Assembly: GCA_964483785.1 (NCBI GenBank)
Contig: CAZACW010000004.1
Location: 6,794-70,793 of the forward strand
DNA length: 64,000 nt
Direction of reading: 5' to 3'
Source of the DNA: an uncultured Planctomycetales bacterium
GTDB taxonomy: Bacteria > Omnitrophota > Gorgyraeia > Zapsychrales > Fredricksoniimonadaceae
The position numbers and the translations under genes are program-made. Below are positions 24,197-59,769 of the stretch, in pieces; position 1 is the first letter of the stretch, and the number at the start of each line of letters is the position of its first letter. The notes beneath the pieces were generated by a model. The model searched no databases and was not told where the DNA came from. It was given only the letters and a program-made list of their open reading frames with translations.

Positions 24197-27088
24197 TTAT
24201 CGTAAGGGTGCTTTCCAGATTTCCTTCAAGGCATCGATGCGGGCATGCACGATCGGCCTCTCTTTTAATCCGTAAATCAAAAATTCAGGGCTCTCTTCCA
24301 CCCTGCCGATCTTGGCCAAGGCAAGGCCTTTGAATAATTTGGCCAGAGCTTTTTCATGCTCCGGGGGCGCTTCCGCGATGAAGCGCGTATTGCTTTCCGA
24401 AAAAAGCAGGACATCTTCCCGGCGCGCGCTTCCCTTATAGGGAAGATTCTTTAACAATACAGTGGCGCCAAGCCCGCCGGCCATGGCCATTTCAGCCAGG
24501 GCCACGCCTGCGCCCCCTTCGGAGCAATCATGCAGGGAAGAGAACAGGCCTGCCTGATTGGCCTTGGCCGCGGCCCGGTAGATTTTGACCGCGGTTTTAA
24601 AATTGACGCGTGGCACCTGCCGGCCCAATTGCCCTGCATTTTCAAGATAGATGGAACCGCCCAATTCATCAGCGGTTGTCCCGATCATGTAAATACTGTT
24701 GCCGGCTTTTTTAAAATCCATGGTCACACAGCGGCGGACATCCTCGATAATGCCGATGGATGAAATCAAAATGGTCCCGGGGATGGCCAGGCTCCTGCCT
24801 TTTTGGGTGTATTCATTGTACAAACTGTCCTTGCCGGAGATAAAGGGCGTGCCAAAAGCCAAAGCAGCCTGATAACATCCCTTGGCACAACGCACGAGAG
24901 CACCCAGCCTGTCCGGCTTGTCCGGGTTGCCCCAGCAGAAATTATCCAAAAGGGCGATGCGCTCCAGGTCCCCGCCCACGGCGATGATCTGGCGGATGGC
25001 CTCATCTATGCAGGATGCGGCCATCCAGAACGGGTCCAGTTTGCCGAAGCGGGGATTGATGCCGTTGGCCACTGCAATGCCGCGCACGGAATCAAGCCTT
25101 CCCCGGATCACCGCCGCGTCCGACGGGCCGTCAGCCGCAGGCCCTACCAAGGGCTTGATCACGCTGGCACCCTGCACTTCATGATCATAAACGCGGATCA
25201 CGCTTTCCTTAGAGGCCACATTATAATGGCTTAAAGCCGCGCAGAGTTCTTGAGTCAGGTCCGGCGTGAGGCGGGGCTTTTTTTCCTTCCTTAAAACCGG
25301 CGGATGGTACACCGCTTCCTTGGTGATTTTGGGCAGGCCGTCATGGATAAAGTCCATGTCCAGATCCGCCACCTGCTGGCCGTGGAAAAACAACTGCAGG
25401 CGGCCGGAGCCGTCAAATTCGCCCAGAACCGCGGCTTCCACGTTTTCATCGGCGAAAACCTGCTTCAGGGCGTCGATCTTGGCCGGCGGTACGGAAAGTA
25501 CCATGCGCTCCTGCGCTTCGGAAATCCATATTTCATGATATTTGAGCCCCTGGTATTTCAAAGGCGCCTTGTCAAGATCAACGCGGGCGCCGGTCTGGGC
25601 GCCCATTTCCCCGACGGCCGATGAAAATCCGCCGGCCCCGCAATCCGTGATGGCGGAATACAGGCCGGCCTCCCTGGCCCGCAAAAGCGCGTCCAAAACT
25701 TTTTTTTCCTCGATGGGATTGCCGATCTGCACCGCGCCCGAGGAAACGGTCTGGGAGGCGCCGGTCAATTCGCCCGATGAAAAGGTGGCGCCGTGAATGC
25801 CGTCCCTGCCGGTGCGGCCGCCCACAGCCACGATCAAATCGCCCTTGTGGACGCGTTTGTTTTCCTTGCCCTTAGGGATAAGGCCGATATTGCCGCAAAA
25901 CACCAGGGGATTGCCCGCGAACTGCTCATCAAAGACAATGGCCCCATTCACCGTCGGGATCCCCATTTTATTGCCGTAATCGCGCACGCCTGCAACCACC
26001 CCCTTCATCACCCGCTTAGGATGCAGGGCACCGGCCGGCAGGCGGGCCAGGGGCATGTCAGGAGGGCCGAAGCAAAACACGTCGGTGCTGCACAAGGGCC
26101 TGGCCGCAAGCCCGGTGCCTAAGGTATCGCGGATCACGCCCCCTACACCGGTATTGGCCCCGCCAAACGGCTCCAGGGCCGAGGGATGATTATGGGTCTC
26201 GACTTTAAAGCAGACATGAAAATCCTCATCAAAGGCAATGACCCCGGCATTGTCGTGAAAAACCGAAATGCACCATTTTTTCTTTAATTTGAGCGTCGGC
26301 ACCGCGATATAGGTCTTGAAAAGACTGCGGATGGTCTCAGTTTTTGGGCTTCTGCCTTCGCGGTAACGGATCAGGCCGCGAAAGGTCTTATGGCGGCAAT
26401 GCTCGCTCCAGGTCTGGGCAATGGTCTCGAGTTCAACATCCGTCGGGTTGCGCCGTTCCTTTTGAAAATAGGCCTGGATCTGGCGCATCTCGGCCAAATT
26501 CAAATACAACTGGCCTTGCCGGGATATTGCGGCGAGCTTTTTGTCCGTGGCGTTTTGCAGATCCACGATGTTCACGTCAAAGGTCGAGGCGGAAGTGCCG
26601 GCCACCGACAGCATCGAGGGGACATGGGCAAAGTCAGGGACCTTGTGCTGGATGAGCTTGTTCATCAGCACGCGGTCCGTGATCATGGCCAATTGTTTGG
26701 GGTTGAGGCGGCCGAAGAGATGGTATTGCTTGGCCGTGCGCACGGCGCTGATGCCCGCGATGCCAAGGTCCTTTATCCCTTTCAGAGTCGAGGCCTCGAC
26801 CGGGTCCATGACGCCGGGATTATAGGCGATTTCAACAATATGGTGACGGGCATCCTTAGGCGCAAGTTTAAGATCAAAGCTGTATGCTTCGACCAAAGGA
26901 TCGGTGAGCAATTCGTCGCAGATGCGCTTAAGCTCCGCGCTGCTGGCGCGGCCTTCTAAAAGGAAGACCGAGACCACCTGCACCTGGGAAAGCTCGCCCA
27001 GCTTCAATTCCTGTATGTCCCGGGCCACCGCGGTGCCAACAGGGTCAAGGACCCCGTCTTTGTGTTTGACTTCAACGCGCCAAATCAT
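24197..27088 (-). CDS. purL: Phosphoribosylformylglycinamidine synthase II (PurL) with an N-terminal PurS-like domain, i.e. a PurS-PurL fusion.
   Basis: The ~960-aa product begins MIWRVEVKHKDGVLDPVGTAVARDIQEL, which is PurS-like, and continues with PurL AIRS-type domains. The start is set at ATG 27088, overlapping purC by 17 nt. Confidence 0.8.
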   Translation of the reverse strand: MIWRVEVKHKDGVLDPVGTAVARDIQELKLGELSQVQVVSVFLLEGRASSAELKRICDELLTDPLVEAYSFDLKLAPKDARHHIVEIAYNPGVMDPVEASTLKGIKDLGIAGISAVRTAKQYHLFGRLNPKQLAMITDRVLMNKLIQHKVPDFAHVPSMLSVAGTSASTFDVNIVDLQNATDKKLAAISRQGQLYLNLAEMRQIQAYFQKERRNPTDVELETIAQTWSEHCRHKTFRGLIRYREGRSPKTETIRSLFKTYIAVPTLKLKKKWCISVFHDNAGVIAFDEDFHVCFKVETHNHPSALEPFGGANTGVGGVIRDTLGTGLAARPLCSTDVFCFGPPDMPLARLPAGALHPKRVMKGVVAGVRDYGNKMGIPTVNGAIVFDEQFAGNPLVFCGNIGLIPKGKENKRVHKGDLIVAVGGRTGRDGIHGATFSSGELTGASQTVSSGAVQIGNPIEEKKVLDALLRAREAGLYSAITDCGAGGFSSAVGEMGAQTGARVDLDKAPLKYQGLKYHEIWISEAQERMVLSVPPAKIDALKQVFADENVEAAVLGEFDGSGRLQLFFHGQQVADLDMDFIHDGLPKITKEAVYHPPVLRKEKKPRLTPDLTQELCAALSHYNVASKESVIRVYDHEVQGASVIKPLVGPAADGPSDAAVIRGRLDSVRGIAVANGINPRFGKLDPFWMAASCIDEAIRQIIAVGGDLERIALLDNFCWGNPDKPDRLGALVRCAKGCYQAALAFGTPFISGKDSLYNEYTQKGRSLAIPGTILISSIGIIEDVRRCVTMDFKKAGNSIYMIGTTADELGGSIYLENAGQLGRQVPRVNFKTAVKIYRAAAKANQAGLFSSLHDCSEGGAGVALAEMAMAGGLGATVLLKNLPYKGSARREDVLLFSESNTRFIAEAPPEHEKALAKLFKGLALAKIGRVEESPEFLIYGLKERPIVHARIDALKEIWKAPLR

Positions 27089-27788
27089 GCGTAACCCTGC
27101 GCAACACTTCCTGATAGGCCCCTTCGACATCGCCCAGGTCCCGGCGGAAACGGTCCTTGTCCAGCTTATTGCCGGTGCCGATTTCCCACAGGCGGCAGGT
27201 GTCGGGAGAAATTTCGTCAGCCAAAATGATGCGGTCCTTGATGCGTCCGAATTCCAGCTTGAAATCTATGAGCTCGATGTTCAAATTCAAAAAATATTTC
27301 TTCAAGACCTCGTTGATCTTAAAGGCCAAAGAGGTGATCCGGCGCACCTCCTCATCCGCCGCGAAATTCAAGGCGCGGATATGGTATTCATTGACCTGCG
27401 GGTCGCCCAGGGCGTCGTTCTTGTAGCAGAATTCCAGCGTCGGGCAGGCCAGGTTGGCCCCTTCGGCCAGGCCCAGCAGACGGCACAGGGAGCCGGCGGC
27501 GCGGTTGCGCACGATGGTCTCCAGGGGCACGATCTCAACGCGCTTGATGAGCATTTCGCGGTCGCTGAGCCACTGCACAAAATGCGACTCGATGCCCTTG
27601 GCTTTCAAATGCTCGAAGATCTTGGCGGCGATGAGATTGTTCATGATGCCCTTTTGCGCGATGGTGCCGCGCTTCTGGGCATTAAATGCGGTGGCATCGT
27701 CCTTGAAATACTGGATCAACAGGCCGGGGTCCTCGGTGGTGTAAAGGATCTTGGCCTTGCCTTCGTAAATTTTTTCCAATTTCTGCAT
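27072..27788 (-). CDS. purC: Phosphoribosylaminoimidazole-succinocarboxamide synthase.
   Basis: The 238-aa product begins MQKLEKIYEGKAKILYTTEDP..., the SAICAR synthetase signature. Confidence 0.95.
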   Translation of the reverse strand: MQKLEKIYEGKAKILYTTEDPGLLIQYFKDDATAFNAQKRGTIAQKGIMNNLIAAKIFEHLKAKGIESHFVQWLSDREMLIKRVEIVPLETIVRNRAAGSLCRLLGLAEGANLACPTLEFCYKNDALGDPQVNEYHIRALNFAADEEVRRITSLAFKINEVLKKYFLNLNIELIDFKLEFGRIKDRIILADEISPDTCRLWEIGTGNKLDKDRFRRDLGDVEGAYQEVLRRVTHDLAR

Positions 27789-32481: not shown

Positions 32482-33213
32482 TTACGGTCGTGGTCTCCCT
32501 ACCGGCCACTCCCGACGGTCGTAGAAAACCCCCACAAAAACAATTCCCAATTCATATAAGAGAAGCAGAGGCAGGGCCAGGACCATCATGGACACGATGT
32601 CCGGCGGGGCGAGCAAGGCCGCGACGACGAGGATGATCAGCACGGCGTGGCGCCTCATCTGGCGCAGGTATTCCGGCGAGGCGATGCCGATCTTGGCCAG
32701 AAAGGCCAGCACCAGAGGAAGCTCAAAGGCCGCACCGAAGGCCACGATCATGTGCCCCAAAAACCCGAGATAATTTTTGACCGTCACCATCGGCACCAGA
32801 TACGCGGAAGAAAAACCCATCAAGAATCCGTAGGCCCTGGGCACGGCGATGAAATACGCGAACGCGGCGCCTGCCAAAAAAAACAAAAGGGAGAGCGGTG
32901 CAAAAACCACGACGAATTTTTTTTCGGAAGGCTTGAGGGCCGAGGCCACAAAGGCCCAGGCCTGGTAACAAATAAACGGCGAGGCCAAAAGCAGGGCCAT
33001 GACCGTGCCCACCGTCATGTAGGTCGAAAACGCCTCCGTCGGCGCTGTAAACACCAGACGGCCGGCAGGCGCGATCAGCACCGGGATGAGCTTGCCGATA
33101 TACCCCCAGCAAAAACAGAAGGCCAGAACAAAAGCGCCCGCGGACTTTAATGTCCGCGAGCGCAATTCTTCCATGTGCTTGAAAAAGGACTGGAATAAGG
33201 ACTGAAACGTCAC
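32482..33213 (-). CDS. tatC: Twin-arginine translocase subunit TatC.
   Basis: The 243-aa product has 6 TM helices and TatC-like N-terminal H(L/M)xELRxR (HMEELRSR). It starts at a GTG that overlaps the tatA stop (GTGA). Confidence 0.85.
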   Translation of the reverse strand: MTFQSLFQSFFKHMEELRSRTLKSAGAFVLAFCFCWGYIGKLIPVLIAPAGRLVFTAPTEAFSTYMTVGTVMALLLASPFICYQAWAFVASALKPSEKKFVVVFAPLSLLFFLAGAAFAYFIAVPRAYGFLMGFSSAYLVPMVTVKNYLGFLGHMIVAFGAAFELPLVLAFLAKIGIASPEYLRQMRRHAVLIILVVAALLAPPDIVSMMVLALPLLLLYELGIVFVGVFYDRREWPVGRPRP

Positions 33214-33383
33214 TTGGCGCCGGGTTCGACGGGCTTTTTGATTTCCTCTTCGGCCCCCTGCAGGTTCTTTTTGAATTCACGGATGGCGCGGCCCAGGGAA
33301 GCCCCCACTTCCGGCAGTTTCTGGGCGCCGAACAGAAGAATAAACACGGCCAAGATCAATATCAATTCAGGCAAACGTCCCAT
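33210..33383 (-). CDS. tatA: Twin-arginine translocase subunit TatA/E.
   Basis: Manual translation gives MGRLPELILILAVFILLFGAQKLPEVGASLGRAIREFKKNLQGAEEEIKKPVEPGAK (57 aa). It is absent from the ORF track because it is under 60 aa. Confidence 0.85.
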   Translation of the reverse strand: MGRLPELILILAVFILLFGAQKLPEVGASLGRAIREFKKNLQGAEEEIKKPVEPGAK

Positions 33384-33458: not shown

Positions 33459-35177
33459 TTATTTCTGGGCCTGCAGTTTTTTGACCTTGTCCTGCAAAGC
33501 ATCGACTTGGTTTTGTAACCCATTGACCTGCGCTTTTAGCTCCTTGATGGACTGCAGAAGGACTGCGGAGAATTTACCGTAATCAATGCCCAGATATTCC
33601 TGCCCGTTGATCTTGTTGGAGGCCACCAATTCCGGATAAACCTTCTGCAGTTCCTGGGCAAGCAAGCCGATGCTTTTTTGGCCTGGCTTAAGTCCTATGT
33701 TACGGGACAACTGGTTCCATTCAAAGGACACGCCATGCAATTGGTTGATTTTGGACAATGTATCCGGCAATGAAACTATGTTCTGTTTTAAACGCATGTC
33801 CGAAGCGCCGGTGACGGTGCCTGAGGCCCAAATATTGCCCGTAACGCTCATGTTACCCGTCTGGTTATAGCTGCCGTTAACGATTAAATTGCTGTTGAGA
33901 TTAAGGTTATTGAGAGTGTCAAATAAAGCTTGGCTGGCAGGGTTATTAGCGACACGAAAAACTATATCGTTTCCTGCCGGCCGGTTTAAATAAAGATGCT
34001 GGTCCGTAGGACTGCTCAAAATATTGTATTGGACGCATCCAGCCGAGGTGGCGGTCTGCCCCAGCGTCAAGCCCACATAATTAGGACCGCAGCCCGCGGT
34101 CCCGATTTGGGCCACGCCTGTTCCCTCGCCTTTGACAGAGAGCGTATTGATGGGAGATGCATAGTCAATGCCTAAATTGCCGCTGCCATTGACATAAAGG
34201 CTGTTGGCCGGAGCATTCCAGGCCACGCCAAACTGAGAAGTAGCGCTGCCCATATCAAAAAAACCGAAATTATAACTCGCATCATAACCCAACACCATCT
34301 GCCGGCACCCTGCCGGACAGGTTGCCCCGGAAGTCCTGCCTATGGACACCTGCCCATTGACTGCGGCGGGGGCATTAAATGCGCCGACCTGGAGCATGTA
34401 GGCAGGGGCAGTTGCCCCGATGCCGACATTGCCGTTGGTGTCGATGCGCATGCGTTCTGTGGGCGTTCCGCCGGGCGATGAGTTCGTACTGGGCGAGGTT
34501 GAAAATGTCAGAAACCCGCCCCATCCCCCGGAATCAACTCCGCTGATTTGGGCCATATTAAGGACATCATTATTGTTGGTAAAAAGAATGGAGCTTCCAT
34601 TGCCGCCATTTCCGTTCACAGAATTTAATCTAAGCAAGTTCCCTAAAGTGGCGTTGCCGGTATCATGGGTGATTTCCAACGAAGCTTGGGGTGTTGTATT
34701 ATTCCCAATGCCGACATTGTTTAAGTAGGTCCCGAAGACCAATTGGGCCGCAGGATTGGTGCCAATGACAAAGGGTGATCCCGCAGGACCATTCAGGTTA
34801 AATACCCTAAATCCCGCATCAGCGGCATCTCCGTCCCAATTTAAATAGACATTAAATATATTCCATTGGCCGGTCAAATCAAGGTTTCCCGTAGCACCGT
34901 CCATGAAAAACGTCCATGGGCTATCAAAATTATTTCCGATGGTCAATGGAGTCCCCCAAGTGGCCGTGGGTGATTCCAGAACAGATGAACCTAAAACATC
35001 CAGCACGTCCGTCCCGACAAAGGTGCCGATGCCGACATTATTGGAAGAAAGGTGATTGTAATTGCCGCTGGGGGCAGGGTAATACGTGGTGAGGGTGGTC
35101 GTTCCGGCATAGACCGCAAGAGCGCCAAGCATTAAAAAAGCCGCTGTGCTAAACAAAAGGCCAAGCTTTTTCATCAA
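33459..35177 (-). CDS. Secreted Gly/Asn/Thr-rich fibre protein with a C-terminal peptidase S74 (intramolecular chaperone auto-processing, tail-fibre/endosialidase-type) domain.
   Basis: The product has a signal peptide and a long G/N/T/S-rich beta-helix-like body. Its C-terminus, ...ASDMRLKQNIVSLPDTLSKINQLHGVSFEWN...IGLLAQELQKVYPELV..., matches the S74 chaperone domain (SD-RLK-NI motif) and ends in a coiled coil. Confidence 0.75.
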   Translation of the reverse strand: MMKKLGLLFSTAAFLMLGALAVYAGTTTLTTYYPAPSGNYNHLSSNNVGIGTFVGTDVLDVLGSSVLESPTATWGTPLTIGNNFDSPWTFFMDGATGNLDLTGQWNIFNVYLNWDGDAADAGFRVFNLNGPAGSPFVIGTNPAAQLVFGTYLNNVGIGNNTTPQASLEITHDTGNATLGNLLRLNSVNGNGGNGSSILFTNNNDVLNMAQISGVDSGGWGGFLTFSTSPSTNSSPGGTPTERMRIDTNGNVGIGATAPAYMLQVGAFNAPAAVNGQVSIGRTSGATCPAGCRQMVLGYDASYNFGFFDMGSATSQFGVAWNAPANSLYVNGSGNLGIDYASPINTLSVKGEGTGVAQIGTAGCGPNYVGLTLGQTATSAGCVQYNILSSPTDQHLYLNRPAGNDIVFRVANNPASQALFDTLNNLNLNSNLIVNGSYNQTGNMSVTGNIWASGTVTGASDMRLKQNIVSLPDTLSKINQLHGVSFEWNQLSRNIGLKPGQKSIGLLAQELQKVYPELVASNKINGQEYLGIDYGKFSAVLLQSIKELKAQVNGLQNQVDALQDKVKKLQAQK

Positions 35178-36357: not shown

Positions 36358-37265
36358 GCAGGCCCTTGCATTTTGAAAACAAAATGAGCGGGCTTCCCCA
36401 TGCCCATGGCCTGGGCCTGGCCAAGACTTCCAAGGGAAAATTTGTCATTAAATGTTATCCGGCTTATGCGGCCCAAAGAATCAGCTTGGAATACGCCATC
36501 AACCGCATCTTGACCCAACGCCGTTTCCCGACTCCGGCCATGCATGCGGGCCCGCCGCATCGTCCATTTTGCAGGATCAGCCACCAGCTCTTTTGCTGCT
36601 ACGATTTTATCGACGGTGACCATGCCTGGCAAAGCATCCAAAGCAGGGACACCTTCCGCCAGATCAATGGCAACTTGATCGGCATCAAAAACACCCTTGC
36701 TCCGCTTAAAGGACGCCTGCCTTTTTTAAGGCAGGAAAGCCTGGCGGCCAAGATCAAGGACCTGTCCCAAAAATCTAAAATCTTAAAAACCTATGACCAC
36801 AAAAATTTGATCGAAGGCCACTTGAAAAACATATGCCGCGCCTTTGAAAGTCAGCGCCGCGCCTTTGCCCGGCAATGGCTGCACAATTGCGCCACCCTGA
36901 CCAATTTTCTAAAATTCAAAAGCAAAATCTATGTGATTGATCTGGAACACGTACGTGAGGATTATGTTCTGGCGGACCTGGCCAGCCTTGTTTTGTCCTG
37001 CCTGTCGGTGGATGTCAAAAAAGATGTTCCGCTGTTCACCATCCAGGCCGTGATCAAAGACCATTATGCCCAGCTGCGGCCGTCTGAAGAAGACCTGGCC
37101 GTTGTTCGTGCCCTCTTTTTGCTTGGCCTGGTCAAGGAATATCTGCATTACATCCGGGCATGCCGATTGCCTGGTCCTGCTTCACAACAGTTGAGTTTAA
37201 AACAAGCCCGCGCCTTCCATCTTTTGGCTGACTCCAAAGCCCTGACGAAATTATGGCTGCCTTGA
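36318..37265 (+). CDS. APH-like kinase-fold protein, paralogous to the preceding gene.
   Basis: The 315-aa product is collinear with the previous product (FFDLGRP...KTSKGKFVIKCYP...RFPTPAMH...HNCATLTNF...VIDLEHVREDY). Confidence 0.65.
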   Translation: MEEIQQICRFFDLGRPLHFENKMSGLPHAHGLGLAKTSKGKFVIKCYPAYAAQRISLEYAINRILTQRRFPTPAMHAGPPHRPFCRISHQLFCCYDFIDGDHAWQSIQSRDTFRQINGNLIGIKNTLAPLKGRLPFLRQESLAAKIKDLSQKSKILKTYDHKNLIEGHLKNICRAFESQRRAFARQWLHNCATLTNFLKFKSKIYVIDLEHVREDYVLADLASLVLSCLSVDVKKDVPLFTIQAVIKDHYAQLRPSEEDLAVVRALFLLGLVKEYLHYIRACRLPGPASQQLSLKQARAFHLLADSKALTKLWLP

Positions 37266-38075
37266 TTGTTCTGACCAAATGCCCTGCACAATCCGGCGTA
37301 ATTTTTGATCATCAGAACATGAGTCATTGTCATCGGCCGTCGCCGCCGAAGGCTTGGCCCTGTGACCATACGTCTTGATCAAGAGTTTCCTTACGACGGC
37401 AGGGACCTGCAGTTCACGGGGCGCGCCGCGCAAAGGAAAAAATTGCCCTGCTGACAGGGAACGCAGCGATGATTTGCCTATTTTTAGTTCATCAGGCATG
37501 GAAAGGGAAAGGGCAATCATTTCCTTGGTTAAAAAGGGAAAGACAAATTCCAATCCGTGGGCCTGGGCCGCCTGATGATGGGCCTCTTCATCAAGCTTGG
37601 TCCTTGCCAGGCGCGCTTCAAGGCCTCCGGGATAAGGCTTTAACGCATCATCCCCAAACCATTGGTCCGCCCCCATGCCGGAGATGAACACATCCCCGGC
37701 GATTTTGCGATCATATTTTTTTAAAGCCGCGTACACCACCGCCAAATCAAGATCCAGCAAAGGTTCCAGCGTCATACGCGCGACGGTCTCAAAGGCAGAT
37801 AAAAATTCAGCGGTCTTGACATGAAGGATATGATGCTGCAGTCCCGCTTCCCTGGCTGTCAAGGAAGCGCCGGCCACGGTCAACGGGTTAAAATCTTCAA
37901 ATTGGACGGTCACAGCCGCAACCTTGGCCCCTTGCCGCCGGGCCAAGGAAGCCATCAACAGCGAATCAAAACCGCCGCTGAACATCACCGCCCTGGGCCG
38001 GCCTTTGATATCACCCAAGGCATGTTCAAGGGCCTGTTGGAGCTGATCAGAAACTTGTTCAATGGGCGCGGGCAT
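37251..38075 (-). CDS. PP-loop ATP pyrophosphatase (asparagine synthetase C-domain-like adenine nucleotide alpha-hydrolase).
   Basis: The 274-aa product has the SGGFDS PP-loop (AVMFSGGFDSLLMASL). It lacks the QueC-type Cys cluster. Confidence 0.6.
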   Translation of the reverse strand: MPAPIEQVSDQLQQALEHALGDIKGRPRAVMFSGGFDSLLMASLARRQGAKVAAVTVQFEDFNPLTVAGASLTAREAGLQHHILHVKTAEFLSAFETVARMTLEPLLDLDLAVVYAALKKYDRKIAGDVFISGMGADQWFGDDALKPYPGGLEARLARTKLDEEAHHQAAQAHGLEFVFPFLTKEMIALSLSMPDELKIGKSSLRSLSAGQFFPLRGAPRELQVPAVVRKLLIKTYGHRAKPSAATADDNDSCSDDQKLRRIVQGIWSEQSRQP

Positions 38076-38084
38076 GGGGGCAGA

Positions 38085-39062
38085 TCAGGCGTTTCTCACC
38101 CTTTGATAGGCTTCCATCTGCCCGGCGATCTCACGGTTTCGCCAGGCCACGCGGCAATTGATGCAGTGATGGTAAGTTCTAAAAGGTTCGCCGCCGTTTA
38201 AGGCCAACGCGCGGGCCTGTGTATAGCTTGCAGATTCCCAAACTGCCTTGAAGCCGGATTCATACGCGTTGCCGACCTTCACCGCCTGCATGAAACAGCA
38301 GACATTCACGTCCCCGTTGAATTTGATGGCGCTGTTAAACCAGCCGTGAAAACACGGGGGCCACTCGCCGCTGATCTCGGCTTTGTCCTGGTGCTGCTGC
38401 AGCTGTATGTGCCGGTTTTGCTCGCTCACTTCCAAGACCCTTTTTTGCACCACATTGGCGCCAATTTTACGGACCAGGTTTTCTGTTTTCAAAAGGTTCT
38501 GCGCGTTTAACCGCGTCATCACCAAAAGCACCTCAATGCAAAAATTCGGATTGTACAAGCTCCGCAGCCTGGCCAGTTCCCTGATATTTTTGATCACCTT
38601 GACAAAGAGGTCCTTGCCCATCAAGGCGCGGTAGGATTCCCGGTCCGCCTCTCCCATATTGATCACGATATGGTCGGCCCGTAAGATGTCGCGGCAGCGC
38701 TCGATGGGAAAGGTCCCGTTGGAAATCAGATTGATGGAAAAATCCGGCTCCAGATGCCGGAGCATATCATAAAACCGCGGGTGCAGGGTGGGCTCGCCCT
38801 GGCCGGAAAGGTAGATGGTATCCACCTGAAGCTCCTTGCATTCCAGGCTTAGCCTTTCAAATAATTCATAAGGCATGAAATTTTCGCCGCTTTTGACATG
38901 GGTGCTGCCCGGGCCGTGATAATAGCAGTACTGACAGGTCAGATTGCACAGCTCCGTGATATGAAACTGCACCATGGCAGGGCCGATCAGGGGACGGCCG
39001 GACTCGACGCCTTTTAACCGCAGCAATAATCTGCGCTTCTGCTCCCGATGGTTTAAGATCAC
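38085..39062 (-). CDS. Radical SAM protein with a SPASM/twitch-like Cys-rich C-terminus (rSAM #1).
   Basis: The product has CNLTCQYC (CxxxCxxC), a GQGEP motif and the C-terminal cysteines CFHGW...VNVCCFMQ...HCINCR. The start is set at GTG 39062, overlapping the upstream stop (GTGA), by homology to rSAM #2 (VILNHREQKRRLLLRLK). Confidence 0.75.
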   Translation of the reverse strand: MILNHREQKRRLLLRLKGVESGRPLIGPAMVQFHITELCNLTCQYCYYHGPGSTHVKSGENFMPYELFERLSLECKELQVDTIYLSGQGEPTLHPRFYDMLRHLEPDFSINLISNGTFPIERCRDILRADHIVINMGEADRESYRALMGKDLFVKVIKNIRELARLRSLYNPNFCIEVLLVMTRLNAQNLLKTENLVRKIGANVVQKRVLEVSEQNRHIQLQQHQDKAEISGEWPPCFHGWFNSAIKFNGDVNVCCFMQAVKVGNAYESGFKAVWESASYTQARALALNGGEPFRTYHHCINCRVAWRNREIAGQMEAYQRVRNA

Positions 39063-40054
39063 TTGACAGCCCCCAGAGCTGATCGTCTTAATCGTTGATA
39101 ATTCTGCAGATGCCCGGCAATCTCTTGGTTGCGGCCGGCCGCGCGGCAATTGATGCAGTCATGGTCTTTTCTGAAAGTCGGCCCGCCCAGCAGGGCACCG
39201 CTGCGGGCATCGGCATAGGCCTTGGACTCCCAGATTTCCTTAAACGGCTTCTCAAAGACATTGCCGATGGTCAAGCTTTGCATATAACAGCAGACATTGA
39301 CCCCGCCGTCCAATTTAATGGCGCTGTAAAACCAGCCGTGATAACAAGGCGGCCACTCGCCGTCAATTTCTGTATGCTCTGCTTGGCCTTTGAGCATAAG
39401 ATTACGGTTGTGCGATGCGGGCTCAAAGGTCTTTTTCTGCACCACATCAGCGCCGAGCCGCAGGACCAGGCGCTCGGTCCTTAATAGATGCTCATCATTG
39501 AGATTGGTCATGATAAAAACCACTTCAATCTTAAAGTCAGGATTGTACAGGGGCCGCAGTCTGGCCAGTTCCTTGATGTTCCTGATCACCCGTCCAAAAA
39601 GGTCCTTGCCCTGCAAGGCGCGGTAGCTGTCCCTGTCCGCGGCGCCTAAATTGATGATGATGCGGTCCGCCCGCAGCACATCGCGGCAGCGCTCCAAGGG
39701 AAAGGTGGCGTTGGTAAAAATCGTGACCGCAAAATCATGCTCCAGGCGTTTGAGCATGTCATAAAATCGGGGATGAAGGGACGGATCGCCTGTGCCGGAG
39801 AGATTGACCGTATCCACCTGCAAATCCGCGCAGTCCCGGGCCAATTGCTCAAAAAGCTCGAAAGACATATGGTTTTTTCCCGACGGGCGCAAGGGGCTTC
39901 CTGGGGAATAGTACCAACAGTACGGGCAGGCCAGATTGCAAAGGTCGGTGATCCTCAGATGCACCGTGGCCGGACCGATCAAGGCGCGCTGTTCTTCGAT
40001 GCTTTTCAGACGCAAAAGCAGCCTGCGTTTTTGTTCCCGGGGCTCAAGGATCAT
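39059..40054 (-). CDS. Radical SAM/SPASM-like protein (rSAM #2), paralogous to #1.
   Basis: The product begins MILEPREQKRRLLLRLKSIEE... and has CNLACPYC, SGTGDP and the C-terminal cysteines CYHGW...VNVCCYMQ...DCINCR. It is about 55% identical to #1. Confidence 0.8.
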   Translation of the reverse strand: MILEPREQKRRLLLRLKSIEEQRALIGPATVHLRITDLCNLACPYCWYYSPGSPLRPSGKNHMSFELFEQLARDCADLQVDTVNLSGTGDPSLHPRFYDMLKRLEHDFAVTIFTNATFPLERCRDVLRADRIIINLGAADRDSYRALQGKDLFGRVIRNIKELARLRPLYNPDFKIEVVFIMTNLNDEHLLRTERLVLRLGADVVQKKTFEPASHNRNLMLKGQAEHTEIDGEWPPCYHGWFYSAIKLDGGVNVCCYMQSLTIGNVFEKPFKEIWESKAYADARSGALLGGPTFRKDHDCINCRAAGRNQEIAGHLQNYQRLRRSALGAVK

Positions 40055-41202
40055 AAGGGGTCATGGGCGGCCAGCCGCAATTTTTCGTTTAATTTTTTGT
40101 TGATCGGCACATAACTGCAATGGCGGCATTCACGCCATTTGGATGAACAGGCATGGATCCCGGCAGATGCTTCGCGAAGCGTATCATGCAAAAAATCATT
40201 GTCGAACCAGATGTCCTTATACCGGCGCTCATTGACATTGCCGGCCACACAAACGCCCACCCCGTCGCAGGGGGCCACCACCTGGCCGTTCTCATCGATA
40301 TAGCTGTAAAACCAGCCCACCTGGCAGTTGACCTTCACTCCCGCGGTCGCATCATAGACAAGCAAGCGGTCATTGTTGGTTTTCGTAGGCGTCATGGTAT
40401 GGACATTGTCATTGTAATGGCCGTTGACGATAATGTTCTTTAAGTTTTCCAAATTATGGACAAAAGAATACCCTGCGCCCAGGGCCTCTTCCACCATGAC
40501 TTTTAATGCGCTCAAATGTTCCTCGGAAAAAACTAAATCCTTCATCTCTTCGGTGGCTTTAAAAAAACGGATGTAGACCTGGTCCACCCCCCTGTCCTGG
40601 GCCAAATCAAGAAAGGCCGGCATTTCCTTGTAGTTATGGTCATAAACAATGAAGGTCAAAACGATTTCCGGCTTGCCGTATTTACGGCGGGCAGCGAGGA
40701 GCCGGTCCAAATGCTTCAATAAATTCGCTAAAGAGCCGCTGGTCTTGCCGTGCACCCGGCGGTAGGAAATTTCATTCATGGCCGAGAGATTCACGATCAG
40801 GCGGTCCGCCAGGCAAAGATAACGCAGATGCTTGCCGTCAAAATCCAGGTGGCTGTAGGCCCGCAGGCGCATTCCCAATTCCTTGACCTTACGGAAGGCC
40901 TGCTCGGCAAAGGGGTAAAGGACGATTTCGCCCCCCTCCAGGTTGATCTCATTGACCCCGATCTCATGGCAATCTTCAAGGACGCCTTCCAGCACCTGAT
41001 AATCCAGCATCACGCGCTTCGGGGGGTTGGATATCAGCGGCGAAAAATACCAGCAGAACGCGCATTTGCGGTCGCAAGCCTGGATGGCATGGATATTGAC
41101 CGACTGCGGGCCGATGAGGGGCCTGCCCAGCAGGGCGCTTTTGGCCCTTAATTTGTCCTTCACGGCAGGAGACAATGATTTTAAGGATTCTGTATTGAGC
41201 AT
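40051..41202 (-). CDS. Radical SAM protein with a Cys-rich C-terminus (rSAM #3).
   Basis: The product has CDRKCAFC (CxxxCxxC) and the C-terminal cysteines CQVGW...APCDGVGVCVAG...HACSSKWRECRHC. Confidence 0.75.
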   Translation of the reverse strand: MLNTESLKSLSPAVKDKLRAKSALLGRPLIGPQSVNIHAIQACDRKCAFCWYFSPLISNPPKRVMLDYQVLEGVLEDCHEIGVNEINLEGGEIVLYPFAEQAFRKVKELGMRLRAYSHLDFDGKHLRYLCLADRLIVNLSAMNEISYRRVHGKTSGSLANLLKHLDRLLAARRKYGKPEIVLTFIVYDHNYKEMPAFLDLAQDRGVDQVYIRFFKATEEMKDLVFSEEHLSALKVMVEEALGAGYSFVHNLENLKNIIVNGHYNDNVHTMTPTKTNNDRLLVYDATAGVKVNCQVGWFYSYIDENGQVVAPCDGVGVCVAGNVNERRYKDIWFDNDFLHDTLREASAGIHACSSKWRECRHCSYVPINKKLNEKLRLAAHDPL

Positions 41203-41912
41203 GGTTGAGCAGTTTCCAATTGCGAAAACAATAAAGCGCGTAATTCCCGGCGTGCGGTCAAGGCCTTGAGCAGGTCCAAAAAATGGGTCAGTGCCCGCCG
41301 GTCTTGAACGGATTTAAAATCCGCGTGGTGTGTCAGCACGCCGGTGAGGATTTTAAGCTTGATGCTTTGGATCAGGGCTTTAAATACATCTTCAGCCTTG
41401 TACGTACTTGTTGTGCCAAGATCATAGCGGCTGAAGGACACCTGGGCCGGGAGATCTAAAAAATCTGCCTGTATCTTAGGCTTATGCGCCCCGGCTGAAA
41501 AATATTTGAACCCCTCTTCTTCTAAGATTGAAACCGTGTTTTGATCAAACCCGTGATAAGGCGGAACAAAGCCCGGCGTAAAATCTTCTCCAAAGGCCCG
41601 GTGCATCCTGCTTTTTCCTTCCCGGATATCTGCTTGCTGGTCCGTCCATGCCCGGGAGGCCCCGAACTCATATTTGCCCTGGCCCGGCGGGGCATGGTTT
41701 TTATGCAGCCAACCGTGCTGGACAATGTCGAGCAATTGGGGCGATTTTTGTTTGGCGTCCCGTAAAAATTTGACCAGGGCAGGTTCCATGGCCCCGGGGA
41801 TCACGGCCTGCACCACGGGAAGGCCGCGCTCAAAAGCCGCATCAAAAAAATAGCGGAAGGGCCCATCCAGGGTCCAGACATCATCGTTACGTATAAAAAC
41901 CCGTGCATTCAT
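41181..41912 (-). CDS. Polysaccharide deacetylase-like (CE4-like) protein.
   Basis: The product has CE4-like motifs: IRNDDV (motif 1), HGWLHKNH (motif 2) and FVPPYHGF (motif 3). It is 243 aa long. Confidence 0.5.
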   Translation of the reverse strand: MNARVFIRNDDVWTLDGPFRYFFDAAFERGLPVVQAVIPGAMEPALVKFLRDAKQKSPQLLDIVQHGWLHKNHAPPGQGKYEFGASRAWTDQQADIREGKSRMHRAFGEDFTPGFVPPYHGFDQNTVSILEEEGFKYFSAGAHKPKIQADFLDLPAQVSFSRYDLGTTSTYKAEDVFKALIQSIKLKILTGVLTHHADFKSVQDRRALTHFLDLLKALTARRELRALLFSQLETAQPCSIQNP

Positions 41913-41945
41913 GAGGCAAATCAGTATACTATTGTTTTACTTCCC

Positions 41946-43157
41946 ATGCGCGTCTTATTCCATTACACCCACAAGCAGACCCTCGGACATACGACAAGGT
42001 CCGTGGCGCTGGTCACGGCCCTCTGCCGCCATGGCGCCGAGGTCCTCGTCTTGCAGGGCGGGCTGCCCCAGCCTTTTGTCCAATTCCCTAAGAATGCCAA
42101 GGTGCTGGATCTTCCCCTGCCCTTTGACGGCCGGGGCAGTTTTCAGGCCCATGCCGCCCCTGTTTCAGCGGCGCAGCGCGCCCCATTTATCCTGAAAACA
42201 GCGGCAGATTTTAAGCCGGATGTCTTCATCACGGAATTTTTTCCATTCGGCCGGCTTTCTTATACGCCGGAATTGCTGCCGACCCTGCGCTTCCTGCGCA
42301 AAAAAGGCGTAAGGATTTTAGCCAGCATCGGATACCCGCTGTTGATTGACCTGGAGCGGTTTCAGGACCCCCGATTTTGCGCTTTGCACAAATCCATCTT
42401 TGCCTTCTTTGACACCTTCCTGATCCACACGCCGGACAAACTTGAAACAGCCTATATCCAAAAGACCATCCCTTCCGAGGCGCTGGCCAAACTGTATTTC
42501 AACCTGTTAAAAGAACTCGAACCAAGGACCAAGTACACCGGGTATGTCTATCCGCAACCCATGATCAGTGATACCGGCAAACCTCGGGCCGTTGCCAAGA
42601 ACAAAACCGTTGTCATCAGCCGCGGCGGCGGGGCCGTGTATCCGAAGCTCATCACTTTAAGCATCGAGGCGAAACGCTTACTGGCCCCTGACATTCATCT
42701 GATCATCGCCTGCGGTCCAGCCACAACAGCAAAAGAAATGGCCTTGTTCCAATCCTGCCTTAAGCCCAAAGACCAATCCAAAATATTTCTCACGCAAAGG
42801 ATCTCAGACCTGGATGATTATTTCAAAGACTGCCTGGCCTCGGTCAGCCTCTGCGGCTACAATACCTCGGTCCAATTGATGCGTCACGGCACACCCTCAG
42901 TCCTGGTCCCTTATCAAAACAATCTCTCCCGCGACAAGGTCTTAAAAACCAATACCAATGACCAGATTGCCCGCGCCCGTCTGCTCAAAGAACGCTTTTG
43001 CGGCCTCATCCTGGACTATGACCTGATGACCGCCTCTAATTTGGCTGAGGCCATTACCCAGCAAATCCACGCCCCCCGTCCTGCCCCTGCCCCCCAGGCC
43101 TGGTTTAACGGGGCTGATCTGACAGCACGCCTGGTGCTTGAAGGTAGTCCAAATTGA
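41946..43157 (+). CDS. GT-B fold glycosyltransferase (MurG/GT28-like C-domain), copy 1.
   Basis: The 403-aa product has N-terminal ...LGHTTRSVAL..., mid-region KPDVFITEFFPFG and a C-terminal VISRGGGAVYP...SVSLCGYNTSVQLM...PSVLVPY donor-binding region. Confidence 0.6.
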   Translation: MRVLFHYTHKQTLGHTTRSVALVTALCRHGAEVLVLQGGLPQPFVQFPKNAKVLDLPLPFDGRGSFQAHAAPVSAAQRAPFILKTAADFKPDVFITEFFPFGRLSYTPELLPTLRFLRKKGVRILASIGYPLLIDLERFQDPRFCALHKSIFAFFDTFLIHTPDKLETAYIQKTIPSEALAKLYFNLLKELEPRTKYTGYVYPQPMISDTGKPRAVAKNKTVVISRGGGAVYPKLITLSIEAKRLLAPDIHLIIACGPATTAKEMALFQSCLKPKDQSKIFLTQRISDLDDYFKDCLASVSLCGYNTSVQLMRHGTPSVLVPYQNNLSRDKVLKTNTNDQIARARLLKERFCGLILDYDLMTASNLAEAITQQIHAPRPAPAPQAWFNGADLTARLVLEGSPN

Positions 43158-44121
43158 ACTTTTTCAAAAAGCCGTGATACGCAAAACAGCCCGGACAATG
43201 GCCTTGGGCCGCCTCTTGAGATAATTTCCGCCGCACTTGATTTAAAGCTTGGGGCAATTCTCCGTTTGACCCTAACTGTCCTGCCGGCTCCATATAGAGG
43301 CACGGATAGACCTTGCGCCGGGAATTGATAAACAAGGACCGCGCCGGTGTGGCGCAGGCACGTATGCAGTCCCGCCCGCCTTCGAGCAAAATGAGCATGG
43401 CTTCGGTGAGCTTACGGTCAACGCCCGCATAACCCTCATCCAAGATTTGACTGATTTGCCGGCGGACAACTTCGATCATCGCGGGCGTCAGGGTCGACAA
43501 GGCGCCGGCCTGCGGCATCTCGTGGCGATGATAATAATCCGAAACGCCGGATTCCATGATCTTGGGGAAAAACCTGGCCTTATAACGGCGGGCCAGCTGA
43601 TAAACCTCATGGATCTCGGCAAAATTCATTTGATTGATGGTGAATTTGAAATCCAAGGTAATCTTTTGGCCATAATTGTCATGGAGCCATCCCATGGTCT
43701 TTAATGTCTTTTGATAAGCGCCTTCCCCCCGCAAGAGATCATGGGTCTTTGGCCCTCCGTCGATGCTGATGCCCATGTACATGCCTTTAAGATAAGGACC
43801 ATAGGCGGTGAACACCCGGCGCACCCCTTCAAAATAAGCGGCGTTGGAATAGACGCCGAATTCATCGATGTCGCCGCGCTCGCGCAGCAGCGCCAGGGAC
43901 TTTAACAATCGGCCGCAATTGCGGTTGAGAAACGGCTCCCCACCGGTGACAGACACGAATTTCAATTTAAATTCCTGGGTCAGGTTTCTGATCATGCGCA
44001 CCACCAGGGAAGCGGTCATCTCATGGCGTTCTTTCTCCGCCCAGATCCCGCAATGCTGGCAATGCAGCTGGCAATGATTGGTGATCTCGACCGTTATATC
44101 ATTAAGAACAGGCTTTTTCAT
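43105..44121 (-). CDS. Radical SAM protein (rSAM #4).
   Basis: The product has CQLHCQHC (CxxxCxxC) and TGGEPFL, with additional C-terminal cysteines (CIRACA..., CPGC). Confidence 0.75.
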   Translation of the reverse strand: MKKPVLNDITVEITNHCQLHCQHCGIWAEKERHEMTASLVVRMIRNLTQEFKLKFVSVTGGEPFLNRNCGRLLKSLALLRERGDIDEFGVYSNAAYFEGVRRVFTAYGPYLKGMYMGISIDGGPKTHDLLRGEGAYQKTLKTMGWLHDNYGQKITLDFKFTINQMNFAEIHEVYQLARRYKARFFPKIMESGVSDYYHRHEMPQAGALSTLTPAMIEVVRRQISQILDEGYAGVDRKLTEAMLILLEGGRDCIRACATPARSLFINSRRKVYPCLYMEPAGQLGSNGELPQALNQVRRKLSQEAAQGHCPGCFAYHGFLKKFNLDYLQAPGVLSDQPR

Positions 44122-45094
44122 TCTGCAGGGTTTCTTTCAAGTCTTCGGCCCGCTGGACATTCTCATCATAATAAGGGCAGGTCTTGCAGGCTGTGTGCAT
44201 TTTTTGGATTTGTCCGTATTTGCCCAAGAGCCGCATGTTCATCATTTGAGGCGAATGCCAAAGCCCTTTCAATGACCATCGGTCCTGATGCGTCAAACGC
44301 ATCTGCGGGATGCGGCAGCAGATGCTGGTATTTTCATCATCGGACTTGACCACCATCTCAAACCAGCCGTTCAGGCACTGGGGCGGTGTCTGATCGTCTT
44401 CGCCCATCTCCGGTGCCGGGCCTTGCGGCAAGGCAATGCTTTGATTGTGCGCATGCACGTTCATCTTCTTAAAGTAAACGGAATTGACCTTCCAGCGCGA
44501 GGCCAAATCCCGCATCATAGGCCTTTGTTTGATGTTTTTGGCGTTGACGATATAAACAATGTCGATGAGAAAGTCAGGCTTGACGGAATCTCTTAAAGAC
44601 ACCAAGCGCTCGATGTTGGCGATGACGCGATCAAAGAGGTCCTTGCCCTGGATTTCAAGATATTGCAGACGGTCCACTGCGCTTAAATCGACAACCACCT
44701 GATCGGCTTTGATCACATCCTGGCAGGCCTCCAGCGGGAAGGTGGCATTGGTGAAAAGCTTGACGAACAGCGGCTGGTCTTGCAAATACCGCATCATGCG
44801 GCCAAACTGCGGATGCAAGGACGGTTCTCCGGAACCTGTGATATGGACTTGGTCCACGTTTAGCTCAACACAGTCCTTGATGGTGCCGCTGAATTTTTCC
44901 CACGACAAATAATGGGCCTTGTCAAAATGGGCGGGATTGCCCGGCGCATGGGTCCAGCAGTATTGGCAGCTTAAATTGCAGGAATTATTGATATGAATGT
45001 CAACGATTTCCGGGCCGATGTAGACCTTCTTGTCGCGCACGCCGGCGATGCGTTTTTGATACCGCTGTTCCAATTGCAAGACATCTAAAATCAT
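44102..45094 (-). CDS. Radical SAM/SPASM-like protein (rSAM #5), paralogous to #1 and #2.
   Basis: The product has CNLSCQYC, TGSGEP and the C-terminal cysteines CLNGW...TSICCRIP...ACKTCPYY. Its N-terminal QKRIAGVRDK resembles the EQKRRLLLRLK of #1/#2. Confidence 0.75.
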   Translation of the reverse strand: MILDVLQLEQRYQKRIAGVRDKKVYIGPEIVDIHINNSCNLSCQYCWTHAPGNPAHFDKAHYLSWEKFSGTIKDCVELNVDQVHITGSGEPSLHPQFGRMMRYLQDQPLFVKLFTNATFPLEACQDVIKADQVVVDLSAVDRLQYLEIQGKDLFDRVIANIERLVSLRDSVKPDFLIDIVYIVNAKNIKQRPMMRDLASRWKVNSVYFKKMNVHAHNQSIALPQGPAPEMGEDDQTPPQCLNGWFEMVVKSDDENTSICCRIPQMRLTHQDRWSLKGLWHSPQMMNMRLLGKYGQIQKMHTACKTCPYYDENVQRAEDLKETLQNEKACS

Positions 45095-48166: not shown

Positions 48167-48195
48167 AAATCAGCAGTGCGGCGTCTTAGACCTCT

Positions 48196-50413: not shown

Positions 50414-50417
50414 AGGT

Positions 50418-59499: not shown

Positions 59500-59769
59500 C
59501 TAAAATTGGTTTAAATACCGCTGCTTAACGTCGGACGATGCCTCAACCGGGCTCCAGTAAGAAGGCCTTCGATCATCCCAGGTTCTTTCCATAAAATCCT
59601 TGCCCCTAAGGCGAAGCAGGAGGGCTATGGGTGTCAACACCATCAAATATAGGATGGTCAGCAATACAAAACTGATTACCGCCTGCACCCATCCTGCCGC
59701 CTTGATTGCGGCATCCAAAATATATTTTAAGTCGCCCGAAAAATTTTCCTGAAATGGCCTTTTCATCAA
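59500..59769 (-). CDS. SxtJ-like small membrane protein.
   Basis: The 89-aa product has one TM helix and lies immediately downstream of the carbamoyltransferase with a 4-nt overlap. It follows the known carbamoyltransferase + SxtJ + SxtK trio arrangement. Confidence 0.5.
   Translation of the reverse strand: MMKRPFQENFSGDLKYILDAAIKAAGWVQAVISFVLLTILYLMVLTPIALLLRLRGKDFMERTWDDRRPSYWSPVEASSDVKQRYLNQF

Follow-up and report, generated by a model that had tools for sequence, protein, structure and literature searches.

A MAT-like candidate surface fibre with an undescribed N-terminal foot module in an Omnitrophota bacterium

Mosaic adhesive trimers and the fibre gene of the window

To our knowledge, Bdellovibrio and its relatives are the only organisms in which surface fibres made from phage tail-fibre parts have been characterised to date; there the fibres serve prey recognition. 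The superfamily of mosaic adhesive trimers (MATs) was defined by Caulton et al. (2024) with 21 fibres of B. bacteriovorus located on the surface of the predator (PMC10769870). All 21 carry a signal peptide and, at the N-terminus, a conserved domain of ~130 amino acids (aa) rich in beta structure; 13 end in an S74 tip with an SDxxxK motif and eight in other tips (TNF-like, C-type lectin and new beta-sandwiches), and structures from Bdellovibrio bacteriovorus are available for Bd1334 (8oml) and Bd2133 (8ond) (PMC10769870). Here, a gene for a fibre of the S74 type was analysed in a 64,000-nucleotide (nt) stretch of contig CAZACW010000004.1 (assembly GCA_964483785.1, lineage Omnitrophota), which is referred to as the window. 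Its product is probably a surface fibre of the Omnitrophota cell itself rather than of a virus and functions in the manner of the Bdellovibrio MAT fibres.

Taken by itself, the presence of a gene for an S74 "tail fiber domain-containing protein" on a bacterial chromosome is of a known kind. New is a MAT-like Omnitrophota fibre with a different, undescribed foot; this foot is the defining part of a mosaic family of very many secreted proteins, whose genes sometimes lie in pilin operons. The finding carries the principle of cellular fibres built from phage parts to an uncultured phylum, for whose proposed predatory or parasitic lifestyle we know of no recognition molecules. It is realised here with a different attachment end, a short module that has no database entry and heads at least 5,350 protein clusters. 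This conserved N-terminal foot is the most informative feature of the protein and was missed in the preliminary description of the window.

The C-terminal module was assigned to Peptidase_S74 (PF13884) (E 5.6e-14, 52.6 bits where the cutoff is 22; residues 459-518 in a 572-aa reading from TTG; all other residue numbers refer to a 571-aa reading, and adding 1 converts them). The S74 dyad S458/K463 is intact in an SDxxxK motif (SDMRLK). S458, D459 and K463 did not vary in an alignment of 15 relatives, nor did S458 and K463 in one of 68; phage S16 gp37 has SDRRIK in the place of SDMRLK, and the motif also aligned with the MYRF ICA domain at the matching positions. Modelled as a monomer with AlphaFold2, the module (residues ~460-571) reached predicted local distance difference test scores (pLDDT) of 92-97. 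Foldseek ranked the MyRF ICA domain first (7dc3, 2e-6), followed by Bd2133, Bd1334, Bd3182 and Bd2439 and then by T5 pb1 and endoNF; the matches to 3gw6 (endoNF) and 4uw8 were weaker. A phmmer search of the PDB returned four matches, namely 6f45 (a phage tail-fibre chaperone), 7dc3 (MYRF; 2e-3), 8oml and 8ond, and no NCBIfam model was found for any part of the protein. MYRF, the best structural match of the module, likewise represents a phage chaperone domain co-opted by cells, but is a eukaryotic membrane-bound transcription factor and unrelated outside the ICA domain. With phage fibres and tailspikes (endosialidase K1F/endoNF, T5 pb1, S16 gp37) the C-terminal 114 residues share the domain, the dyad and the terminal helix, and a common assembly logic, in which trimerisation is followed by self-cleavage, is presumed. 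Unlike these, the protein has a Sec signal peptide, no phage genome around it and an N-terminal end that is missing from viral contigs.

Similarity to MATs extends from the S74 module into the shaft. Degenerate body units of the form '(E)RMRI..GNVGIGT..P...L.V' lie at residues 153, 249 and 333, and phmmer matched the body (residues ~160-333) to 8oml and 8ond at 6e-4 and 7e-4 via an '(E)RMRIDT.GNVGIGT.AP...LQV' unit. Foldseek hits of the body were 8ond (1e-4), 8oml (4e-4) and 8onb (9e-4). Body and S74 end together matched full-length fibres of Bdellovibrio, Pseudobdellovibrio and other Bdellovibrionota-named loci at pairwise values of 1e-19 to 1e-31. The protein thus resembles the S74 subgroup of MATs (e.g. 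Bd3182) in having a signal peptide, a beta-helical shaft of such units and a C-terminal S74 module with SDxxxK. Like MATs, it is chromosomally encoded, has one conserved N-terminal end combined in its family with swappable tips (S74, TNF/C1q-like and others) and belongs, as is proposed for Omnitrophota, to a lineage that attacks other cells.

It differs from MATs at the N-terminus, where the MAT domain '(F/L)TYQGRI(L/V)K.DG.PL...' is missing and a shorter TTYYPAPxGxY module is found instead. Against a set of eight MAT N-domains (seven from Bdellovibrionota-named records and that of Zixibacteria L003), the N-terminal 170 aa gave a best BLAST E of 0.54 and a profile score of 1.4 bits. As a control, the N-domain of L009 gave values of 1e-15 to 1e-122 with the six remaining ones from Bdellovibrionota and only 0.051 with that of Zixibacteria L003. 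With 571 aa, the fibre is also short compared with the ORFs (open reading frames) at Bdellovibrionota-named S74 loci (679-1,617 aa) and with the MATs of stated size (626-1,151 aa; PMC10769870), and its source organism belongs to another phylum, the Omnitrophota. The fibre would accordingly resemble an S74-type MAT in its working but lacks one defining MAT feature, the N-domain. No text match for other phyla or for the N-terminal motifs was found in the supplement of the MAT paper (PMC10769870). Separately, starts resembling the MAT N-domain, '(I/F)(N/T)(F/Y)QG.L...G.P...', were noticed in S74 proteins of Zixibacteria (L003), Gemmatimonadota (P0047) and a metagenome (P0030); of these, L003 was tested (E 0.051 against a Bdellovibrio N-domain), and P0047 and P0030 were judged by eye. 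If such starts are real, true MAT-type fibres reach well beyond Bdellovibrio-like organisms.

Just ahead of the predicted cleavage site, a two-Cys tip module (C362 and C380: GCGPNY...AGCVQYNILSSPTDQHLYLNRP) is common to the relatives P0002, P0003 and P0021, and the conserved Cys pair fits an extracytoplasmic protein. By analogy with the S74 fibres Bd3182, T5 pb1 and endoNF, residues ~353-457 are presumed to form the ligand-binding end, which would be exposed after release of the chaperone (PMC10769870). Further upstream, residues ~165-245 (window 34440-34682) are 60% identical to a block of P0020, which comes from Patescibacteria and is annotated as a shufflon PilV tip adhesin; this indicates that fibre modules have been exchanged between distant phyla.

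Most parts of the protein had been recognised in the preliminary description, and several were adjusted. The ORF given there (33459..35177, minus strand, 572 aa) is real, but the TTG at 35177 lies one codon 5' of the likely ATG start at 35174 (...TTG ATG AAA AAG...), and the 571-aa product from ATG is identical to the protein on public record (P0001). The signal peptide was confirmed in form, with a basic n-region (MKK), an 18-residue hydrophobic core and V-Y-A before G, i.e. V-x-A at -3/-1; a helix was modelled at residues 4-20 (AlphaFold2 monomer), and the position of the signal peptide is conserved in relatives. By inspection and hydropathy, the N-terminus appears to be of the Sec type, and inspection found no twin-arginine motif. 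Lipoprotein or prepilin-type processing was rejected, as neither a lipobox nor a G-F(T/S)LxE cleavage motif was seen. The body is indeed rich in Gly, Asn, Thr and Ser (protein composition G 12.6, N 10.7, S 8.1 and T 8.1%, together 39.5%) but repetitive only loosely, with four degenerate N(V/L)GI(G/D) units (residues 46, 153, 249 and 333) and no internal repeats in a self-BLAST of the protein. The S74 assignment with SDMRLK was upheld, the dyad being retained across relatives, whereas the coiled coil described at the C-terminus is a long helix that forms part of the chaperone module itself. The proposal of a trimeric cell-surface fibre or adhesin seems the best reading of the protein, since body and S74 end are homologous to MAT surface fibres.

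In the proposed mechanism, the precursor would be exported via the Sec pathway, as its signal peptide suggests, and three chains would fold to an elongated beta-helical fibre on the template of the C-terminal S74 chaperone, as in homologous fibres. Through the Ser458/Lys463 dyad, which is seen in the sequence, the chaperone would cleave itself at Ser458 and release a fragment of ~12.7 kDa. The mature subunit (~44.6 kDa, isoelectric point 4.2) would expose its distal end as a ligand-binding tip, and the foot (TLTTYYPAPSGNYNHL and the first GIGT unit) would provide the proximal attachment to a component of the cell, as the anatomy of the family suggests. The likely role is adhesion to other cells in prey or host recognition, to judge from the literature on the phylum, in which Omnitrophota are proposed to be largely predatory or parasitic (PMC10066038).

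Table 1. Positions of the fibre gene, its parts and the adjacent tat genes in the window.
Feature	Position	Strand	Description and basis
Fibre gene	33459..35174	minus	571 codons and TAA stop; from ORF list and sequence
Signal peptide (predicted)	35106..35174	minus	residues 1-23, MKKLGLLFSTAAFLMLGALAVYA then G; hydropathy, -3/-1 rule
N-terminal foot module	35022..35105	minus	residues 24-51 (GTTTLTTYYPAPSGNYNHLSSNNVGIGT); T-Y-Y-P-x-P-x-G-x-Y motif and first GIGT unit
Fibre body	33804..35021	minus	residues 52-457; Gly/Asn/Ser/Thr-rich
Distal tip region	33804..34118	minus	residues ~353-457, just before the predicted cleavage site
Ser458 codon	33801..33803	minus	
Lys463 codon	33786..33788	minus	
Peptidase_S74 chaperone/self-cleavage module	33462..33803	minus	residues 458-571; Pfam, dyad, model, Foldseek
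Terminal long helix of chaperone module	33465..33581	minus	residues 532-570, pLDDT >90; weak leucine-zipper-type Pfam matches
tatA (57 aa)	33210..33383	minus	Pfam TatA_B_E, E 4.6e-19; 75 nt downstream of fibre stop
tatC	32482..33213	minus	same strand, downstream of fibre

The N-terminal foot module and its family

The closest homologues of the fibre (40-65% identity in parts) share two nearly invariant ends and have a variable, shuffled middle. One end is the S74 module; the other consists of the signal peptide and 'TL(T/S)TYYPAPxGNYNxL..N(V/I)GIGT'. The consensus of the foot, (E/G)x(I/L)T(I/L)T-TYYP(A/S)PxGxYxxL, follows directly after the signal peptide and is matched by residues 25-42 of the query, and T30, Y32, P33, P35, G37 and Y39 were invariant in the alignment of relatives. 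No model covering the foot module was found in Pfam or NCBIfam, and its motif strings were found in none of 8 million full-text papers. The Omnitrophota literature searched yielded no mention of tail-fibre-like proteins.

The extent of the family was determined by scanning viral and metagenome collections with a back-translated DNA pattern for TYYP(A/S)PxGxY. Among 2.9 million viral contigs, the pattern matched 11 times and never in the form of a foot (internal motif of a 2OG-oxygenase-like ORF, or chance). The metagenome collection contained at least 120 loci with the pattern, and the motif stood directly after a hydrophobic, signal-peptide-like stretch in 129 of 131 matches. Positions left free by the pattern were conserved as well, with E at -6 (83%), I/L/V at -4 (92%), T at -3 (78%), I/L at -2 (97%), T at -1 (83%) and L at +12 (83%); in the subfamily of the query, the usual E at -6 is replaced by G. 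An independent foot profile was made from 101 segments, none of them from this subfamily. It matched query residues 11-50 with 36.2 bits (E 6.5e-11) as the sole significant match of the window, the next one reaching 3.9 bits (E 0.79). Among 80 reference-genome loci, the profile matched only in the one Omnitrophota locus, and on viral loci it produced only noise of 13-14 bits.

An exhaustive HMMER family search of 1.84 billion representative proteins, seeded with the foot segment of the query, returned at least 5,350 clusters (E <= 1e-3), 1,690 of them with E <= 1e-10, and in the best 150 clusters the match began within the first 26 residues. All foot-module proteins that bear an organism name are from Omnitrophota (P0042, P0263, P0268 of 'Ca. 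Gygaella obscura', P0269 and P0389).

In Pfam, 77 complete foot proteins (108-626 aa) differed in their C-terminal part: Peptidase_S74 was found in 10, a Gp53-like tail-fibre tip (Gp53-like_C), a K1-lyase C-terminal domain (K1-lyase_C) and a C1q (TNF-like trimeric) head in one each, and no Pfam domain in 64. Many of the latter are short and Cys-rich at the end, often with '...CC(R/K)x'. Because the foot starts thousands of secreted proteins with different C-terminal parts, the system appears to be a modular adhesin kit in which one attachment end is combined with many binding ends. Judged by these sequences, the family would follow the design logic of MAT fibres and phage receptor-binding proteins, i.e. 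one conserved proximal end and many exchangeable distal ends. The foot module also offers a testable handle, with which candidate host-recognition proteins in Omnitrophota could be catalogued, the binding partner found and repertoire size compared with host range.

Beta-helical bodies often hold glycan-cleaving sites, S74 modules cap enzymatic tailspikes such as endosialidase, and one family member has a K1-lyase_C domain. The fibre could on these grounds be a secreted enzyme instead, free or surface-bound, that acts on envelope polysaccharide as a tailspike-like depolymerase (glycosidase or lyase, endosialidase-like), and Omnitrophota have been proposed to attack other cells (PMC10066038). 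Such a function is distinctly improbable. Pfam, NCBIfam and a sequence search of the PDB revealed no catalytic domain. The matches of the body are fibre shafts with GNVGIGT units and not domains of the endosialidase or pectate-lyase type, and the mature part, of ~430 residues, is short. A binding rather than a cleaving surface fibre is preferred.

Modelling of a small family member placed the invariant motif in an N-terminal extension of pLDDT ~61-64, while the next 60 residues reach 89-97. As weak evidence from a model, the low confidence of the motif would fit a segment that becomes ordered only on a partner. A fold search with a small family member returned only a local, non-significant match to the GNVGIGT unit. 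In most family members (P0273-P0414, e.g. residues 41-100 of P0288), the motif is followed by a dockerin/EF-hand-like 'GD(T/N)N.DG.L...D' and then by the first GNVGIGT, with pLDDT of 89-97; the dockerin/EF-hand-like loop is missing from the window fibre. Short foot proteins with the ending '...CC(R/K)x' recur together with a radical-SAM/SPASM enzyme of ~490 aa (L177 5327-8733, L187 201-2973, L221, L255, L287 and L214), which looks like a maturase for the Cys-rich C-terminus. In L177, L187 and L221 an unknown ORF of ~150-200 aa lies between the foot gene and the radical-SAM enzyme.

Chromosomal setting, viral matches and neighbouring genes

Pfam was scanned with every window ORF of at least 150 aa and PHROGs with the Pfam-negative ones. 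Among these ORFs of the 64-kb window, no phage structural, terminase, integrase, tail, sheath or baseplate gene was found, and the window contains no tRNAs. Seven close relatives on longer contigs were likewise in a chromosomal setting and none in a prophage, and no tail, sheath or baseplate genes were found beside them. P0007 lies near ileS-lspA-lgt ... murA-mreBC-uvrB, P0009 near gatB-tsaD ... ftsH and P0042 near lpxD ... guaA-dnaE, and P0014 and P0006 are among unknown genes. P0021 (L298) and P0033 (L301) occupy the same position in two different genomes, divergent from pyrR-pyrB-pyrC. The non-prophage setting noted in the preliminary description was thus corroborated in the window and beside the seven relatives. 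A second S74 paralogue is located in tandem ~630 nt downstream of P0021.

Viral similarity is concentrated at the other end of the protein. PHROG tail-fibre families were matched with a best E of 7e-30, and 24 of the 25 matches listed start at residue ~387 or later, phrog_1980 spanning 266-571; the many matching viral contigs cover mainly residues ~420-570, and none reaches the N-terminus. The gene has a GC content of 50.3% and a third-position GC content (GC3) of 56%, below the 55-60% and 66-80% of the housekeeping arm and similar to the accessory genes on its right. Together with the fact that only 64 kb of the genome are in view, these features would suit a phage leftover, i.e. a remnant or cargo of a prophage, tailocin or contractile-injection system, or a fibre mounted on a phage-like particle that is encoded elsewhere. 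We regard such an origin as very improbable. Phage genes and tRNAs are lacking as described, the N-terminal attachment end was seen in none of the 11 pattern matches of the viral contigs, and two relatives hold the same chromosomal position. The N-terminal attachment end of a phage fibre fits a baseplate, and fibres of phage particles are assembled in the cytoplasm and have no Sec signal peptide. Moreover, the S74 module is 55-65% identical to cellular relatives versus at most 45% to any viral contig, which argues for long residence in cells. The earlier suggestion of a domesticated tailocin or contractile-system fibre likewise found no support here.

The preliminary description placed the gene between tatAC and a glycan-tailoring locus. 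Tat genes do lie directly downstream (Table 1), but what lies on the other side is less a plain glycan locus than a biosynthetic cluster rich in radical-SAM/SPASM genes, in which sugar-type tailoring genes occur (DegT, GT28, two MBOAT, GDSL and carbamoyltransferase). It had been supposed that this locus glycosylates the fibre or that the two are partners through glycan binding, and a coupling to tatAC was considered as well. Physical adjacency in the window and the Ser- and Thr-rich body agree with a glycan link, as does the start of the foot, (E/D)-(S/T)-(I/L/V)-T, which presumably bears a loose resemblance to bacterial O-glycosylation sequons. Such links are nevertheless hardly credible. Neighbouring genes are divergently transcribed, the seven close relatives are in entirely different neighbourhoods, and tatAC and the radical-SAM cluster recur neither there nor at the 120 family loci listed, near which no tatA or tatC was found; a widely recurring neighbour is likewise missing. 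The signal peptide lacks a twin-arginine motif, and the radical-SAM maturase of some family members is not orthologous to the radical-SAM genes of the window. Neither supposed link was retained, and the adjacency of these neighbours to the fibre gene is regarded as incidental.

Two more specific candidates were rejected. The fibre was considered as a Tat substrate or as part of a tat operon, but tatA has a promoter-like site of its own, in addition to the missing twin-arginine motif and the lack of tatA/tatC near the 120 loci; no terminator-like site lies in the 75-nt gap between fibre and tatA. A link to the adjacent radical-SAM cluster was rejected because the similarity of the family's maturase to one gene of the window (27% over 127 aa) does not go beyond the generic core, and nothing in the window matches the unknown partner ORF of the family loci. 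The sole terminator-like hairpin of the region (33134-33163; 12 pairs, 10 of them G-C, followed by a T-run) is located inside the 5' part of tatC.

To the left of the fibre are mnmE, a Mur ligase gene, purH, era, a gene for a DNA glycosylase of the endonuclease III family (HhH-GPD), the gene for the CCA-adding enzyme, nrdR, glyA, rpiB and tsaC, and, further on, purD/M/Q/L/C/B and genes for a polyprenyl synthase and a HemN-like enzyme as well as tatC and tatA. The serine hydroxymethyltransferase of the window is 77-83% identical to homologues, and all named ones are from 'Candidatus Omnitrophica/Omnitrophota'. The purL ORF (977 aa, 24197-27130) has an N-terminal PurS domain and is thus a purS-purL fusion; as read, it is not in the protein collection, and its annotated start is probably different. 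To the right, two divergent kinase-like genes are followed by the radical-SAM-rich cluster. Its ten radical-SAM genes, several of them with SPASM (37251-51470 and 58297-59340), are unusually dense and not linked to the fibre family. They are interleaved with genes for an Asn-synthase-like protein, a DegT aminotransferase, a GT28-like glycosyltransferase, a DUF2334 protein, an AMP-binding enzyme, two MBOAT acyltransferases and a GDSL esterase, and the cluster also includes a NodU-type carbamoyltransferase (59766-61520).

Mounting of the fibre and prepilin-linked loci

A MAT-like cellular surface fibre draws its support from the S74 domain with its dyad, homology to MATs, the chromosomal context, the restriction of organism names to Omnitrophota, the conservation of the foot and the synteny by pyrR-pyrB-pyrC that P0021 and P0033 keep. 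Several points weigh against it. Trimerisation, self-cleavage, surface display and ligand binding of the fibre are all inferred from homology, and the predatory or parasitic lifestyle of the source organism is assumed from phylum-level literature (PMC10066038). Genome evidence is restricted to 64 kb, and by its GC content the fibre gene is an accessory gene, possibly transferred, although not a recent prophage insertion. The AlphaFold2 monomer is poor in the body (mean pLDDT 63), as would be expected of a chain that normally folds as an intertwined trimer. All-against-all clustering of 57 loci of at least 4 kb yielded no conserved neighbour as docking partner, no ORF family being present in more than seven loci. 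Finally, the passage of a Sec-exported trimer across the outer membrane is unexplained unless it has a carrier such as a pilus.

A carrier of this kind is suggested by seven loci (L198, L202, L208, L267, L270, L274 and L296), in which the foot gene is on the same strand as a packed group of 1-4 prepilin-type genes ('GFTL(L/V)E + hydrophobic helix') and lies directly after the cluster or, in L267, embedded in it. L296 encodes the Omnitrophota protein P0042 as the last gene of a tight same-strand run with two prepilin-type genes; L270 and L296 (L296/L297) represent the same conserved operon, which ends in an S74 fibre. In the systematic scan, prepilin linkage was found in six of the 120 loci listed, to which P0042 is added. 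Two relatives, P0014 and P0020, have Pfam matches to Shufflon_N (PilV-type), and type IVa pili are near-universal in Omnitrophota (PMC10066038). With PilY1/minor-pilin tip complexes, these family members share the arrangement of a large Sec-exported adhesin at the end of a minor-pilin gene cluster; they differ in that they have neither a PilY1 or von Willebrand domain nor any similarity in sequence, and the window fibre is not beside pilin genes.

The fibre could thus be a pilus-tip fibre, whose foot docks it on minor pilins in the periplasm after Sec export and which a pilus or pseudopilus then carries through the secretin in a PilY1-like manner. This alternative departs from the favoured explanation only in how the fibre is mounted and is possible, though on balance unlikely. 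Besides the linked loci, the PilV-type matches and the distribution of type IVa pili, it would explain the crossing of the outer membrane, and the predicted disorder of the motif in the small family member is as expected for a segment ordered by a partner. However, no prepilin-type ORF was found in the window, linkage occurs in only ~6 of the 120 family loci listed, and six other close relatives are without it. Its enrichment over background appears modest, and the threefold symmetry of S74 has no obvious match in a 1:1:1:1 minor-pilin tip. The sole pilus-related gene of the window is a weak match to Peptidase_A24 (prepilin peptidase; E 8.5e-8, 57461-58375), 22 kb from the fibre.

A more general version of this idea is that TTYYP(A/S)PxGxY is a universal docking tag of Omnitrophota. 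By means of it, Sec-exported proteins, among them trimeric S74 fibres, fibres with a C1q head and small Cys-rich domains, would be loaded onto a complex of minor pilins and so delivered to the tip of a type IV pilus or pseudopilus. We consider this doubtful. If it were true, Omnitrophota would possess one retractable machine with exchangeable prey- or host-binding heads, and phage receptor-binding hardware and pilus machinery would have been fused in a way that has gone unrecognised.

Apart from prepilin genes, two further associations were noted beside relatives of the MAT-like fibre. A short protein (76-129 aa) that is secreted and ends in '...VVATSDGGIVIV.GNKVSK(F/Y)DKNL..TK.(I/V)ELS' directly follows fibre genes of the query's subfamily in L298/L228, L299 and L300 and is divergent from the motif gene in L192 (L298 9893-10486 and 12431-12784; L299 2812-3201; L300 1573-1890; L192 3047-3235). 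This VVATSDGGIVIV-type protein is absent from the window and could have a role in assembly or be a partner. Upstream, P0009 and P0014 have a cassette in common (L294 5601-7200; L299 1-1408), made up of a fusion of bactofilin with HTH_17, a small helix-turn-helix-like protein and a protein of ~211-245 aa, the last of which resembles, by eye, an integrase core-binding domain without the catalytic domain. An AbiEii toxin gene follows P0009, two genes with Fic domains lie downstream of P0014, and the cassette may be a small mobile or regulatory island.

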